Shown in pieces: positions 1,009-7,254 of a DNA stretch of 41,987 nucleotides; the first letter of the stretch is position 1; every line of letters begins with the position of its first letter. The position numbers and the translations under genes were made by a program. Location: the IMG/VR virus record IMGVR_UViG_647533160_000006, positions 1 through 41,987 of that record; one strand, given 5' to 3'. Source of the stretch: a virus (Duplodnaviria > Heunggongvirae > Uroviricota > Caudoviricetes). Below the pieces are notes generated by a model that ran no database searches, was not told the DNA's origin, and saw only the letters and a program-made list of their open reading frames with translations.

Positions 1009-1083
1009 GTCCTCTTAGTTAAATGGATATAACGAGCCCCTCCTAAGGGCTAATTGCAGGTTCGATTCCTGCAGGGGACACCA
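1009..1083 (+). tRNA. argW: tRNA-Arg (anticodon CCU)
   Basis: 75-nt sequence GTCCTCTTAGTT...GCAGGTTCGATTCCTGCAGGGGACACCA; acceptor stem pairs, anticodon loop CTCCTAA, T-loop GGTTCGATTCC, encoded CCA end. Confidence 0.9.
1069..1083 (+). other. attL core (prophage left junction inside argW 3' end)
   Basis: 15-bp CTGCAGGGGACACCA at the 3' end of argW is repeated exactly at 40284-40298; integrase gene follows ~160 bp downstream. Confidence 0.6.
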
Positions 1084-2512: not shown

Positions 2513-4819
2513 CTAAGGACTTATTGCCCCAAATGCTTTGAATATTGCACCTTCCCCTTCTCCAGAAGATGTGCATACAAAACCAATGTGACCACCTGGC
2601 GAAGGATTTTTGAAAAATAAAACATCTCCTCTAACCCAATATCCAGTTTTTGGCAACTGTGTTACAGAAAATATTCTTTGATACCCTGCTACATTCTGCG
2701 ATTCATACAAATATGAATCCGTCCCTAAAGAAAGGAATTGTTTTGCCCCTACAGAAGATTTGGCATCACTATCAACAAGGCGACCCGCCCTTCCCCCTGA
2801 ATTTATTAATGGATACAACCAAAGTATGGTGTCTTTCTCTTGCCCAACCCCTGATATTGCTGCATTTTTTATAGATGCATTTTCAATTCCAGACACACCT
2901 ATATATGCTCGTTGCGAATCGGTACCGTTACCTATTGTCCTATTTATTAATTCAAAATTTTCTATCTTTACTGGATTTTCAAAATTAAGTATTTTTATAC
3001 CATTTGTTGCGGCAAACGTGATATCTCCGTTAACAGTGACAGTCAGGCCATCTATTACAGCTTCATATATTGAACCTATTGTTCCTCTTCCAGGCTTGAA
3101 CCCGGATGATATGATATTACATTCACTGAATGTTAATCTAATTATTTTAGAACTATCAAAATGGGTGCCATTTGATGCGTTCGTTAAAGAACCGTCTGGC
3201 TTGGTATCATAATGATTACATCTTATCAGTTTTGCAGCTCTTAAGTCGACTGAATGATCAAAGAACTCATTTCTGTGCTCTCCAATCAACCCTCTAAAAG
3301 TGCAATCAATGTATTTTAAATTAGGTGTATTTGATTTGCATGTTATGTTGAAAGAATTTGAAAGATATGAGTTTACCACCTTAATGTCATTAACTGGATT
3401 CGATTGAGTCCTATAGATGCTAAATGAAGAGAATTTTGCTTCATTTGCAGTAACTCCTTCAAGTACTACATTTGAAATTTTGCGTACTTCTGACTCTATG
3501 GCAAAGTTATGTCCAGGTGAACTTGATATACTACCAAGCCCGGAGTTATAGGCGTCGCCACTAATATAAATATTGTCTCCGCCAGCAACAACAAAAGCTG
3601 AACGCCCCATTTTGTTAATAGAGAAATTAGTAACTCGTGAATAACAATCATCTCCATTCAATCCTGCTAAATAAATAGCATCCATTGCTCCGTCATATGC
3701 TGTATAATGTGCATCAAATATCAAAACCTTATGATCAATAAACCAAAATCCATATTCTGGACATTGATATCCAGAATCCCCGAACTCCCCGCCTAATATT
3801 ACACTCTTTCCATTGAAATCAATATTAACTCTTCCTGAGATGGAAATAATTGGACAGCCATTAAACCCAAATAAAATACCTCTATTTGCACGATAGTCAA
3901 AATTTGTTTGAATTGTTTTAATTGGGAGGCCAGTTACCGGATCAAATGACCCAACCCGCAATCCATCTGAGAAAATAAAATTGCTATCATTAAATTCATA
4001 CCGCAGTGGATAATTGAAATTTCTTACTGTACATTTCTGGTTTGGTATATAAGACCCGCCAAATCCTGTCGCACCTGAAAGATACTGGCTTCCAACATAA
4101 AAATCTCCTTTTGGAAAAATTACCCTCACAGGCCCACTTCTTGTTTCAATATATCTCGCAAGCCTTTCAAGAATTTCATCATTTTTTGCACCATCATTAC
4201 TTTCATGTAACTTAAATGGTTCTATTCCTACATATATTGTTTCTTCTTTTATAAAAGAAACAGGCTCCCATAATGAAGGTTCTGGGTAACTCCCAGGAGG
4301 GACAAGAACATTATCTAATCCTTTCCTTGTATAAACTTTACCTTCTTTAAGAAAAAGCCCTGCCTGTCTCCTGTCGTCAATTGTAAATCCTGACTCAAAT
4401 GTTCCTATTAGATTAATACCATAGCTATTAGATAGCTCTTTCCAAATATTAAAAAGATTATGCTCCACCTGTTTCCGTAACTGATCAGGATCATACTTCA
4501 GCACATTCGGAAAATAGAACTGCTGCGCCCCATATGCATCGTACACAGCCATAGAATGACCTTGCACAGTTACGAACTTGGCAATCTGTCCGTTATATAC
4601 CGGATATCCGGCAGCGTTAATGATGATTGGTTGCGAAACGGGAACGTGAGAACCGTCTTCGTTCTCCACATAAACCTGAATCTGGTTTTCAGGATTTACC
4701 GGATCAGTGTCAATTTTACCGATATAAATTTTGCCATTGGCTACGGCTTTAAAAGAACGAGCCATAGTGAAGAGTTGCGAAGGCATAGATACAATCACAT
4801 TGGCTGTAATGTCTGTCAT
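2513..4819 (-). CDS. Tailspike protein (P22 gp9-like N-terminal head-binding domain, divergent receptor-binding region)
   Basis: 768 aa; first ~110 aa ([43 protein letters not shown]...VLKYDPDQ) match the recalled P22 tailspike head-binding domain; the remainder is not recognisably P22, Sf6 or HK620. Confidence 0.85.
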
Positions 4820-4877: not shown

Positions 4878-4900
4878 AAAAAAACCCAGCCGAAGCTGGG
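4878..4900 (-). terminator. Rho-independent terminator between ant and tailspike gene
   Basis: Minus-strand read CCCAGC-TTCG-GCTGGG followed by TTTTTTTAT. Confidence 0.7.
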
Positions 4901-4919
4901 TCGTTGCGTTGGTTATCTG

Positions 4920-5798
4920 TCAGTAGTTATGTACTGAAGGAGGTAATTCTTTATTCTTAAGTCTCATCCATGCGGAAAGATTCGTTGGTCCTTCTGGCTC
5001 ATTGATATCAACATCTCGTGTGTGATTGATTAAAACGTCCCTCGCCATTCCGATAACATACGAGAACTCATGACCGTAGTCGTAGCATCTGCCGGAATAG
5101 TTCGATTGAATTTGTTTTAATGCCGGATACAGTTCGCGGAATAATGCCTGTGAGCGGTTGGCATAATCCCATAACCATACAAGGCTGTTTGCTTCTTTTG
5201 CAGAAAGCTCGTTGGTTTTCTTCTCTTGTTTGCCGATAAACTCGCCTTCAAGCACTACCCTGTGGATGTACTCTACGGCCAGCGGGATTTGTTCAATTGA
5301 AAGTTCATCAATGCTGTCAATACCAAAACGCTGATGAACCATATTGTATGCATCGTCATAGCGAAGTCCTTTCTTTCCTACCAGCATGTTTACTGCATCG
5401 CGTAGCGGCGTTCTTTCCTCAACAGTGGTTTTCTTGCCTTTCACATACTCGCCATGTTTGCGAATTGAAGGTAGAACTTCTGCTGTTACCCACTTGCGGA
5501 ATTTGTGCGGGACCGAACCTTTATTGACAGCATCGCGGCAGCGCAGAACCAATGTATACATACCTGATTCGCTAACAATGCTTAGATTCTGCTCACCACC
5601 AAGGGTGTAACTTAAAGTTACTCCCTTTTCATCGTCATCAAGTGCAGTAAGCGCCTTGCGTGAGTTAGTCAGGGTTAAAGCATCACAAACATCTTTTGCT
5701 ACAAACCACGGATCACCGCATTTGTTGATGACGCGGATTTCACTGTCGCCGAATTTGAAGATGGTGAAATCGTTTTGTGCCTTTGCTATACTTTTCAT
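4920..5798 (-). CDS. ant: Phage antirepressor Ant (BRO-N / KilA-type)
   Basis: Motif [29 protein letters not shown] typical of Bro-N antirepressors; lies downstream of arc as in P22 immI; start chosen at internal Met (MKSIAKAQ) leaving a 68-nt arc-ant spacer; ORF is open up to 5864. Confidence 0.75.
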
Positions 5799-5866
5799 GT
5801 CAATATTTCCTAATCCGATTTGTTGATACCGAAGCCCTGACTGTTCCCGCAGTTGGGGCTTCAACT

Positions 5867-6028
5867 TTACGCGCCAATGCGCCCTTCCTTCTTAAAGCTT
5901 TCCATTACTCTCTGATAAATCTCAGAGTTAACAGACCGACCATTCTCTTCCGCCACCTTGCGTACCAAATCCAATACTTCTTTAGGCCACCGCAAATTGA
6001 ACTGCGGCATCTTGCTCATTCCTTTCAT
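5867..6028 (-). CDS. arc: Arc repressor (ribbon-helix-helix)
   Basis: Translation [53 protein letters not shown] (53 aa) is essentially the P22 Arc sequence as I recall it; the track ORF is extended upstream. Confidence 0.9.
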
Positions 6029-6044
6029 ATTCACCTCACAATAT

Positions 6045-6061
6045 AGGTCCACCGTGGACCT
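6045..6061. promoter_or_regulatory. Mnt operator (Omnt)
   Basis: Perfect 17-bp palindrome AGGTCCACCGTGGACCT in the arc-mnt divergent region. Confidence 0.8.
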
Positions 6062-6070
6062 ATTGAGAAT

Positions 6071-6091
6071 ATAGTAGAGTGCTTCTATCAT
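6071..6091. promoter_or_regulatory. Arc operator (Oarc)
   Basis: 21-bp ATAGTAGAGTGCTTCTATCAT, matching the Arc operator as I recall it, adjacent to Omnt. Confidence 0.75.
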
Positions 6092-6118
6092 GTCAATACA
6101 CTAACTTGGAGTGATGGC

Positions 6119-6370
6119 ATGGCTAGAGATGATCCGCACTTTAACTTCCGTATGCCTATGGAAGTAAGGGAGAAATTAAAATTCAGGGCGGAGGCGAATG
6201 GGAGATCAATGAACTCCGAGTTGTTACAAATCGTCCAAGATGCTCTATCAAAACCATCGCCTGTGACTGGATATCGCGACGATGCAGAACGACTCGCTGA
6301 TGAGCAGTCAGAGCTTGTTAAGAAGATGGTGTTTGATACGCTGAAGGATTTGTACAAAAAACCCACCTGA
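6119..6370 (+). CDS. mnt: Mnt repressor
   Basis: 83-aa product MARDDPHFNFRMPMEVREKLKFRAEANGRSMNSELLQIVQDAL... matches recalled P22 Mnt; divergent from arc. Confidence 0.9.
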   Translation: MARDDPHFNFRMPMEVREKLKFRAEANGRSMNSELLQIVQDALSKPSPVTGYRDDAERLADEQSELVKKMVFDTLKDLYKKPT

Positions 6371-6388
6371 AGGTGGGTCCTATTTATT
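6356..6388. terminator. Bidirectional hairpin terminator (mnt 3' end / lipoprotein gene 3' end)
   Basis: ACCCACC-TGAA-GGTGGGT flanked by an A-run on one side and CCTATTTATT on the other; convergent genes end here. Confidence 0.65.
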
Positions 6389-6806
6389 AGTCTTGCTTTG
6401 TTGATGGTATAAGAGATGCGTTTGCCTCTTTTGGCTTCAAGGTATACATCCCACCATTAAAAGGATCTACAGCAAGCCAACCAATTAACCCACCAAACAC
6501 AAGGTTTCCACCAATATACCAACCATTAGCATTGGCTTTGATTGGCAGGGTAACTGGTTCGTACCCATCCTTTTCCATAGTGATCTGGTAGCTCTTTTTG
6601 CCAAAATAACTACCATCTGACTTGGCAAGAGTTACTCCTTGCGGGGTCTTGCCTTGCGCAACAATCACGCCTGATTCGTCTTTTACTTTAAAGCTCGCAC
6701 CGGAAGGATTGCTGTTCACTTGCACGAGCTGTGTTTCGTCACCAACAATAGTTGCGCACCCAGATAACAATATAGCGCCAGCAACAACGCCGATAATCCT
6801 CTTCAT
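6387..6806 (-). CDS. Putative lipoprotein with PEGA-like domain (accessory gene in sieA slot)
   Basis: Signal peptide plus lipobox MKRIIGVVAGAILLSGC; PEGA-like pattern SNPSGA...GKTP...KDGYEP; C-terminal Gly-rich hydrophobic segment; sits between gp16 and mnt. Confidence 0.6.
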   Translation of the reverse strand: MKRIIGVVAGAILLSGCATIVGDETQLVQVNSNPSGASFKVKDESGVIVAQGKTPQGVTLAKSDGSYFGKKSYQITMEKDGYEPVTLPIKANANGWYIGGNLVFGGLIGWLAVDPFNGGMYTLKPKEANASLIPSTKQD

Positions 6807-6924
6807 ATCAATTTCCATATTTGAAAAAACCGGAAACATCCTAATGACAAACCATTCAAATGTGAAGTAGGCAAAAGATGTTTACTTTTTTCATGGTATC
6901 CTGCGAAAAACTAAGGAGGTTGGT

Positions 6925-7254
6925 GTGTTAGAAATAGTCGTACTCGCTCTTGGGATATCCTGTTGCGTACTATATGCAGGGTTAGCTGCCCTCAAGAAAC
7001 AGGTTAAGGAATTAGATCGCTCACATGAAATTGATACAAAAATTGCGCGATTAACAGAAGAGAATAAACACTTAAAAAATTCCATAAGGGCACTAACTGA
7101 TGACAACTACAAACTGTCCCATGCATTGGCTAAGTGGGAAATAGTAAGTTATGAAAGAATGACCGACATGATTTTTTCGTCTTATATGGCTACAAAATCT
7201 CCTGAAACATCAGGAAAAGCAATAATTGCAGCCATTGAAAAGAGAATTAAATAG
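6925..7254 (+). CDS. Small membrane-anchored coiled-coil protein (accessory gene in sieA slot)
   Basis: GTG start 5 nt after AGGAGG; N-terminal TM helix (LEIVVLALGISCCVLYAGLAAL) then heptad-like charged helix; divergent from the lipoprotein gene. Confidence 0.6.
   Translation: MLEIVVLALGISCCVLYAGLAALKKQVKELDRSHEIDTKIARLTEENKHLKNSIRALTDDNYKLSHALAKWEIVSYERMTDMIFSSYMATKSPETSGKAIIAAIEKRIK

Follow-up and report, generated by a model that had tools for sequence, protein, structure and literature searches.

The C4 antisense RNA of the immI region of P1 and P7 is a small RNA that prevents synthesis of the antirepressor (Ant) by occluding a ribosome binding site. It is processed from the transcript of its own target and pairs in trans through short loop sequences, rather than being a convergent, fully complementary cis-antisense RNA. 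The sar RNA of phage P22 is reportedly the subject of Liao et al. 1987, Wu et al. 1987 and Schaefer & McClure 1997, as cited in later papers, and the last of these is said to deal with sar structure. A further source places P22 sar within the mnt/arc/sar control of ant and presents it as a demonstrated regulator (PMC2629481). According to the UAB_Phi20 paper, which restates the P22 model, sar is transcribed from Psar and is discussed together with late-promoter transcripts (PMC12111858). Moreover, a third source describes detection of sar by small-RNA sequencing of P22-infected cells (PMC13397905).

The window, i.e. the whole stretch of 41,987 nucleotides that was analysed, contains a gap of exactly 68 nt between arc and ant (5799-5866, read from the sequence and the ORF list). 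This gap is bounded by the arc stop codon (complement of 5867-5869) and the ant ATG (complement of 5796-5798), and the 68-nt arc-ant spacer proposed in a first-pass annotation, which presumed an internal Met as the start of Ant, is therefore exact in its coordinates. With high probability the spacer represents the sar gene in the immunity I (mnt-arc-ant) region of a P22-like (Lederbergvirus) prophage, with expression of the RNA and repression of ant expected from the example of P22. The region comprises the following elements:

2513-4819, minus strand: tailspike gene (ORF in the immunity I region of the window)
4883-4902, minus strand: intrinsic terminator after ant, GACCCAGC-TTCG-GCTGGGTT followed by TTTTT (terminator scan)
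4920-5798, minus strand: ant, antirepressor of 292 aa and predicted target of sar (Pfam; same start in PGAP)
5867-6028, minus strand: arc, 53 aa (Pfam Arc, E = 1e-30; aligned with arc of P22 and epsilon34)
6045-6096, no strand assigned: control region, divergent promoter/operator block (coordinates transferred from BK000583)
6045-6067, no strand assigned: Omnt (transferred from BK000583)
6071-6091, no strand assigned: Oarc (transferred from BK000583)
6068-6096, minus strand: Pant (transferred from BK000583; promoter scan TTGACA-17-TATATT)
6063-6091, plus strand: Pmnt (transferred from BK000583; promoter scan TTGAGA-17-TATCAT)
6119-6370, plus strand: mnt repressor gene, 83 aa (Pfam Arc and Repressor_Mnt)

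Judged from sequence, the whole mnt-arc-ant circuit in which sar would work is present in the window. As in the P22-type immunity I region, the mnt and arc-ant operons are divergent, with overlapping Pant and Pmnt promoters and operators for Arc and Mnt, and the control region with Omnt, Oarc, Pant and Pmnt matches P22 at 105 of 106 positions. In megablast comparisons, an identity of 95.7-96.6% to P22, epsilon34 and many Lederbergvirus genomes extends from position 5783 rightwards through arc and mnt. The records of P22 and epsilon34 both annotate a terminator at the place of 4883-4902. The Arc protein differs from P22 Arc by R16K. In the window, arc, ant and the tailspike gene lie on the minus strand, as does the late operon, and late read-through would therefore carry ant, as in P22.

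Near the left end of the window, a tRNA-Arg (CCU) gene is located at 1009-1083 (plus strand), and phage homology starts at about position 1069; it therefore resembles a P22-like prophage with argW, the integration site reported for Kapi1, as its point of insertion. Overall the window is mosaic, its best match being IME10 with 57% coverage of the first 25 kb. To the right of the circuit, a stem-loop (ACCCACC-TGAA-GGTGGGT, 6361-6378) is situated between mnt (plus strand) and a convergent 150-aa ORF (6387-6839, minus strand). On the plus strand it is followed by a T-run and preceded by an A-run, which gives it the appearance of a bidirectional terminator. The 150-aa ORF takes the place of epsilon34 gene 15 ('conserved hypothetical') and displays a signal peptide and a lipobox-like LLSGC motif; it has no Pfam match, and it is possibly a prophage lipoprotein in the ant moron. 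A further ORF at 6925-7254 (plus strand) occupies the position of the epsilon34 hkcB homologue.

The Rfam covariance model of sar (RF00262) matches 5800-5866 on the plus strand over positions 1-68 of its 68 positions, with a score of 71.6 bits (E = 2.5e-14) compared to a curated gathering score of 43. Besides tRNA, it is the sole ncRNA family above threshold in the whole 42-kb window, and a sequence relationship to C4 is likewise not seen among the Rfam matches above threshold. Weak matches to STnc370 and to sroH/CrcZ merely reflect the terminators of ant and mnt and were rejected, the sroH and CrcZ matches being due to the stem-loop at 6361-6378; those to mir-921 and a snoRNA are chance matches. 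In a gap-free alignment the misc_RNA of P22 maps to 5799-5868 and sar of epsilon34 to 5800-5867, and the homologous bases in P22 (BK000583) and in the epsilon34 record are annotated as Psar, sar antisense RNA and sar terminator. The suspicion of a Sar-like antisense RNA locus, raised in the first-pass annotation, is supported by the covariance score and by this alignment, and the comparison of the spacer with the P22 sar region that had been proposed as a check gives clear similarity. Homology to P22 places the first nucleotide of the putative RNA at G5799 and its 3' end at 5866-5868:

5799-5867, plus strand: predicted sar antisense RNA of about 68-70 nt (Rfam RF00262; homology to P22 and epsilon34)

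The predicted RNA is thus intercistronic between arc and ant, runs on the plus strand opposite ant and covers the ant Shine-Dalgarno sequence. Within it and on the opposing strand, the following structural elements can be recognised:

5799-5827, plus strand: sar stem-loop 1 with a 7-bp stem (5799-5805 with 5821-5827; fold, covariation)
5808-5811, plus strand: anti-Shine-Dalgarno UCCU in the loop of stem-loop 1 (read from sequence)
5808-5811, minus strand: ant Shine-Dalgarno core AGGA, 9 nt before the AUG and fully covered by sar (read from sequence)
5831-5862, plus strand: sar stem-loop 2, putative intrinsic terminator hairpin with 14 bp (three of them G-U), a UCCC loop and an AACUUUA tail (fold; alignment)

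A 71-nt plus-strand RNA folds into these two stem-loops with -29.7 kcal/mol, and its minimum-free-energy structure equals the centroid structure. None of 200 dinucleotide shuffles is as stable (-11.5 ± 2.6 kcal/mol; z = -7.1). The architecture corresponds to that of sar, i.e. a 5' stem-loop that presents the anti-Shine-Dalgarno sequence in its loop, followed by a long 3' hairpin rich in GC. The latter (GAAGCCCTGACTGT / TCCC / GCAGTTGGGGCTTC, 5831-5862) is the imperfect long hairpin that had been noticed opposite ant. It is indeed imperfect as DNA; as plus-strand RNA, however, the mismatches are G-U wobbles and the stem consists of 14 consecutive pairs.

A structure of this kind could also serve the arc-ant mRNA alone, working in cis as an attenuator, a processing site or part of the leader, and no antisense RNA would then be involved. 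The complement of the hairpin does fold on the ant mRNA strand (-16.0 kcal/mol). On that strand, however, the three G-U pairs turn into A-C mismatches, and stem-loop 2 alone is clearly more stable on the plus strand (-21.9 kcal/mol). The same holds for the whole spacer, the opposite strand of which folds at only -18.6 kcal/mol compared to -29.7 kcal/mol for the plus strand, and a 101-nt minus-strand stretch shows no excess of fold stability over shuffles (z = -0.5). Moreover, the minus strand is devoid of a U-run after the hairpin, and the homologous RNA of P22 has been detected. An element confined to the mRNA is very unlikely on these grounds, to which the conservation of the promoter and the pattern of hairpin variation described below have to be added.

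Just outside the spacer, inside the 5' end of ant, the elements of a promoter are found on the strand of sar:

5764-5769, plus strand: -35-like hexamer GTGAAA of putative Psar, within ant codons 10-12 (promoter scan; P22 columns)
5784-5792, plus strand: extended -10 element TGcTATACT of putative Psar, overlapping ant codons 3-5 for S-I-A (no difference from P22 and epsilon34)

The promoter scan reports GTGAAA-17-TATACT with an upstream TG (5764-5792, plus strand; 9 of 12 matches) inside ant codons 2-12, which coincides with the columns annotated as Psar in P22 and epsilon34. By its sequence only, this is a promoter within the 5' end of ant with a start site adjoining the ant start codon; its -35 hexamer is poor (4 of 6 matches). 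The first-pass annotation had stated that neither a clear promoter nor a U-tract could be assigned. The first half of this statement does not hold, since a putative promoter lies at 5764-5792, outside of the interval that had been considered, whereas the second half stands, the U-tract being weak (AACUUUA). The same weak U-tract is present in P22 sar, where the hairpin is annotated as the sar terminator, and hairpin plus tail are identical in epsilon34. The T-run of the sar hairpin was too short for the generic terminator scan to call it. By homology to the terminator annotated in P22, sar probably ends at this 3' hairpin.

According to the ORF list, the frame of ant is open up to a TTG at 5864, and translation from this codon would give a protein of 314 aa and leave no intergenic spacer. 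Such a start is found in the record of Kapi1 (MT813197), in which a 945-nt anti-repressor gene beginning at TTG (locus L003, 1601-2545) spans sar and overlaps arc by 4 nt. That the spacer is coding is nevertheless extremely unlikely. The ATG at 5798 is conserved in every related locus together with the AGGA Shine-Dalgarno sequence 9 nt upstream, whereas the length of the in-frame open stretch upstream of it, which can be used in a qualitative manner only, varies from 3 to 114 codons among relatives and even within one stem-loop class. Furthermore, substitutions in the spacer are paired, as in an RNA, and not codon-like. In RefSeq E. coli genomes, NCBI PGAP annotates an ant CDS of 879 nt that begins at this ATG, with the 68-nt spacer left free, and ant of both P22 and epsilon34 begins at the ATG homologous to 5798. 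Ant is thus predicted to initiate at ATG 5798, the internal Met presumed in the first-pass annotation, and not at the upstream TTG. The ant start given in the Kapi1 record is probably wrong.

The Ant protein itself departs from the P22 type. Pfam assigns its N-domain (residues 20-110) to Bro-N and its C-domain to P22_AR_C, whereas the N-domain of P22 Ant is P22_AR_N; the P22-type combination of P22_AR_N and P22_AR_C is hence not found. While residues 122-292 are 85% identical to residues 130-300 of P22 Ant, the N-terminal 121 residues are unrelated. This chimera is an allelic domain swap and does not affect the assignment of the locus to sar. Only the first five codons of both genes are alike (M-K-S-I-A in the window, M-N-S-I-A in P22) and overlap the -10 element of Psar. 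Parts of the ant body in the window match many Stx-converting phages at 80-90% identity.

Comparison with the described loci reveals that P22 sar occupies the same position between arc and ant, is likewise antisense to the ant ribosome binding site and shares length and two-stem-loop architecture with the sar of the window. In the 3' 40 nt, 39 positions are identical and one base of the hairpin loop differs; the -10 element of Psar is identical, whereas the -35 hexamer is GTGTTA in P22 and GTGAAA in the window. The first 30 nt, however, which form stem-loop 1 and pair with the ribosome binding site, are identical at just 12 positions, yet they still form a stem-loop of this type. This half has diverged because the ant allele differs, the target in P22 having a P22_AR_N domain in place of Bro-N. 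When the 5' halves of P22 and the window are paired with the heterologous ribosome binding site, predicted energies are -12 to -13 kcal/mol, in contrast to -47 to -51 kcal/mol for the cognate pairs. Since the pairing half is only 40% identical, kinetic properties of P22 sar are not transferable. In epsilon34 (EU570103, sar annotated by similarity), stem and loop of the hairpin do not differ from those of the window, layout and flanking mnt are the same, and the identity over 5783-6400 is 96.6%, but stem-loop 1 and the Ant N-domain are of the P22 type.

The closest named phage is Kapi1 (vB_EcoP_Kapi1) with an identity of 97.8% over ant and spacer. It differs in its mnt-side neighbourhood and in an HNH endonuclease gene between ant and the tailspike gene (L003, 990-1490); this gene is absent from the window, where the ant terminator alone separates ant and the tailspike gene. 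A 161-nt block comprising promoter and sar is covered to at least 80% in 392 of 5426 complete E. coli genomes, and, among all matching records, 62 show a best-place identity of at least 99% and 435 one of 95-99%. Neither the Kapi1 record nor the E. coli prophage records with this block carry a sar annotation. The Kapi1 isolation paper makes no mention of ant, sar or mnt, and the Kapi1 lysogen RNA-seq paper shows no clear non-coding signal in this part of the genome; it used uninduced lysogens and a standard library of total RNA, a type ill-suited to an RNA of 68 nt.

Comparative evidence comes from two samples. The first comprises 120 loci (L004-L123) and was collected by scanning IMG/VR with the hairpin sequence. 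Being picked by the hairpin, it is uninformative on hairpin conservation, and a second sample of 80 loci was therefore chosen by Ant protein homology alone (73-100% identity). All 80 of these Ant-anchored loci contain the sar element, abutting the ant start on the antisense strand, and a covariance model of our own scores 51.7-85.3 bits on the sar strand compared to at most 23.6 bits on the opposite strand. In the 15 distinct sequences among them, helices 1 and 2 are both 99% paired, while slid controls reach 27-49%, and the changes in hairpin variants of the L164, L177 and L180 types are compensatory or wobble-compatible on the sar strand. In the hairpin-anchored loci, stem-loop 1 occurs in at least 26 different sequences, all of which fold and expose a pyrimidine-rich anti-Shine-Dalgarno sequence in the loop. 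For stem 1, 96% of the cells are paired over 18 distinct sequences (slid-partner controls 20-64%), and three of the six pairs have changed on both sides. Both sar helices covary or remain wobble-compatible on the sar strand, and the retention of such pairing in the variant hairpins speaks against a structure serving the mRNA only.

A second argument against a purely mRNA-borne element is the promoter. The extended -10 motif TGn-TAnnnT is present in 114 of 115 related loci, ends 3 nt before the complement of the ant ATG and is conserved over at least five unrelated Ant N-termini, with an xTGxxx hexamer 17 bp upstream in all Ant classes; in all of them it is found at the right distance and in the antisense direction. 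Otherwise unrelated Ant proteins have a common N-terminal pentapeptide, M-x-S-[IVL]-[AS] (5784-5798 in the window; loci L001-L123). The codons of this pentapeptide are the complement of the extended -10 element of Psar (TGnTAnnnT), and therefore the promoter on the opposite strand, embedded in ant codons 2-5, appears to constrain the N-terminus of unrelated Ant proteins.

The genes upstream of the hairpin in the hairpin-anchored loci encode P22-type Arc, other ribbon-helix-helix proteins or non-Arc proteins, a diversity that is used qualitatively only. At many of these loci the upstream gene ends on the hairpin itself, its stop codon sharing the hairpin's first two bases; at P22-type arc loci, a TGA overlaps the foot of the hairpin stem. 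Classes of stem-loop 1, classes of Ant N-termini and upstream genes are found in many combinations (L004-L123, e.g. L015, L042, L109 and L112).

Both the invariant hairpin and the -10/ATG block act like junctions of a mosaic. It might be argued that both are kept mainly as sites of homologous recombination ('boundary sequences') of a mosaic ant moron and not for the function of an RNA. At least 10 different upstream genes, Arc-like and not, are found next to the same hairpin, classes of stem-loop 1 are reassorted with those of the Ant N-terminus, and the record of CUS-3 annotates 'boundary sequences' under the match to a query of ant plus spacer. However, service as a junction is compatible with a function as sar, and on its own it leaves the covariation of stem-loop 1, the strand-biased pairing and the well-placed promoter element unexplained. 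In addition, the P22 homologue is a demonstrated regulator (PMC2629481). Recombination as the main reason for conservation is thus highly improbable.

On the model of P22, a sigma-70 promoter with an extended -10 element (Psar, 5764-5792), located in the first 12 codons of ant, would fire on the plus strand and give rise to an untranslated RNA of about 68 nt, which would start at G5799 next to the ant start codon and end at the hairpin 5831-5862. This RNA would adopt two stem-loops and form the perfect complement of the whole arc-ant intercistronic RNA, with the ant Shine-Dalgarno sequence facing the loop of stem-loop 1. The perfect complementarity to its own ant leader results from sar being cis-encoded opposite this leader. 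A duplex of the 5' 30 nt of sar with the segment containing the ant ribosome binding site has a calculated energy of -46.6 kcal/mol. Pairing would hide the ribosome binding site, so that no antirepressor would be translated. Templates blocked in this way would be transcripts from Pant as well as late-operon read-through, which would proceed on the minus strand through arc and ant into the tailspike gene. By analogy to P22, the sar RNA of the window most likely blocks translation of Ant; its transcription, its exact ends and the repression of ant would all follow the P22 homologue.

The locus is an ordinary, previously unannotated copy of the known P22 sar and does not represent a new kind of system. 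Mildly new are only the allele-specific 5' half, the covariation support and the reassortment around two invariant junctions. Among P22-like phages, at least eight clearly different classes of stem-loop 1 and ant ribosome binding site assort independently both of the Ant N-domain and of the gene upstream, and recombination at two junctions that hardly vary, one being the Psar -10/ATG block and the other the putative terminator hairpin, may account for this reassortment. A tentative and rather doubtful extension of these data is that stem-loop 1 serves as a specificity module, its classes defining groups within which sar represses ant in trans, e.g. when a prophage meets a P22-like phage that superinfects or shares its host cell. 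If this were true, the diversity of sar would tune cross-immunity and antirepressor crosstalk and would not represent neutral mosaicism.

The main value of the finding lies in annotation. This allele of sar goes unannotated in Kapi1, whose ant CDS is drawn across it, as well as in hundreds of E. coli prophages, and the comparative data provide covariation support for the two-stem structure of sar. Recognising sar fixes the start of ant and adds a regulator to models of antirepressor control, and hence of induction and of the crosstalk between prophages.
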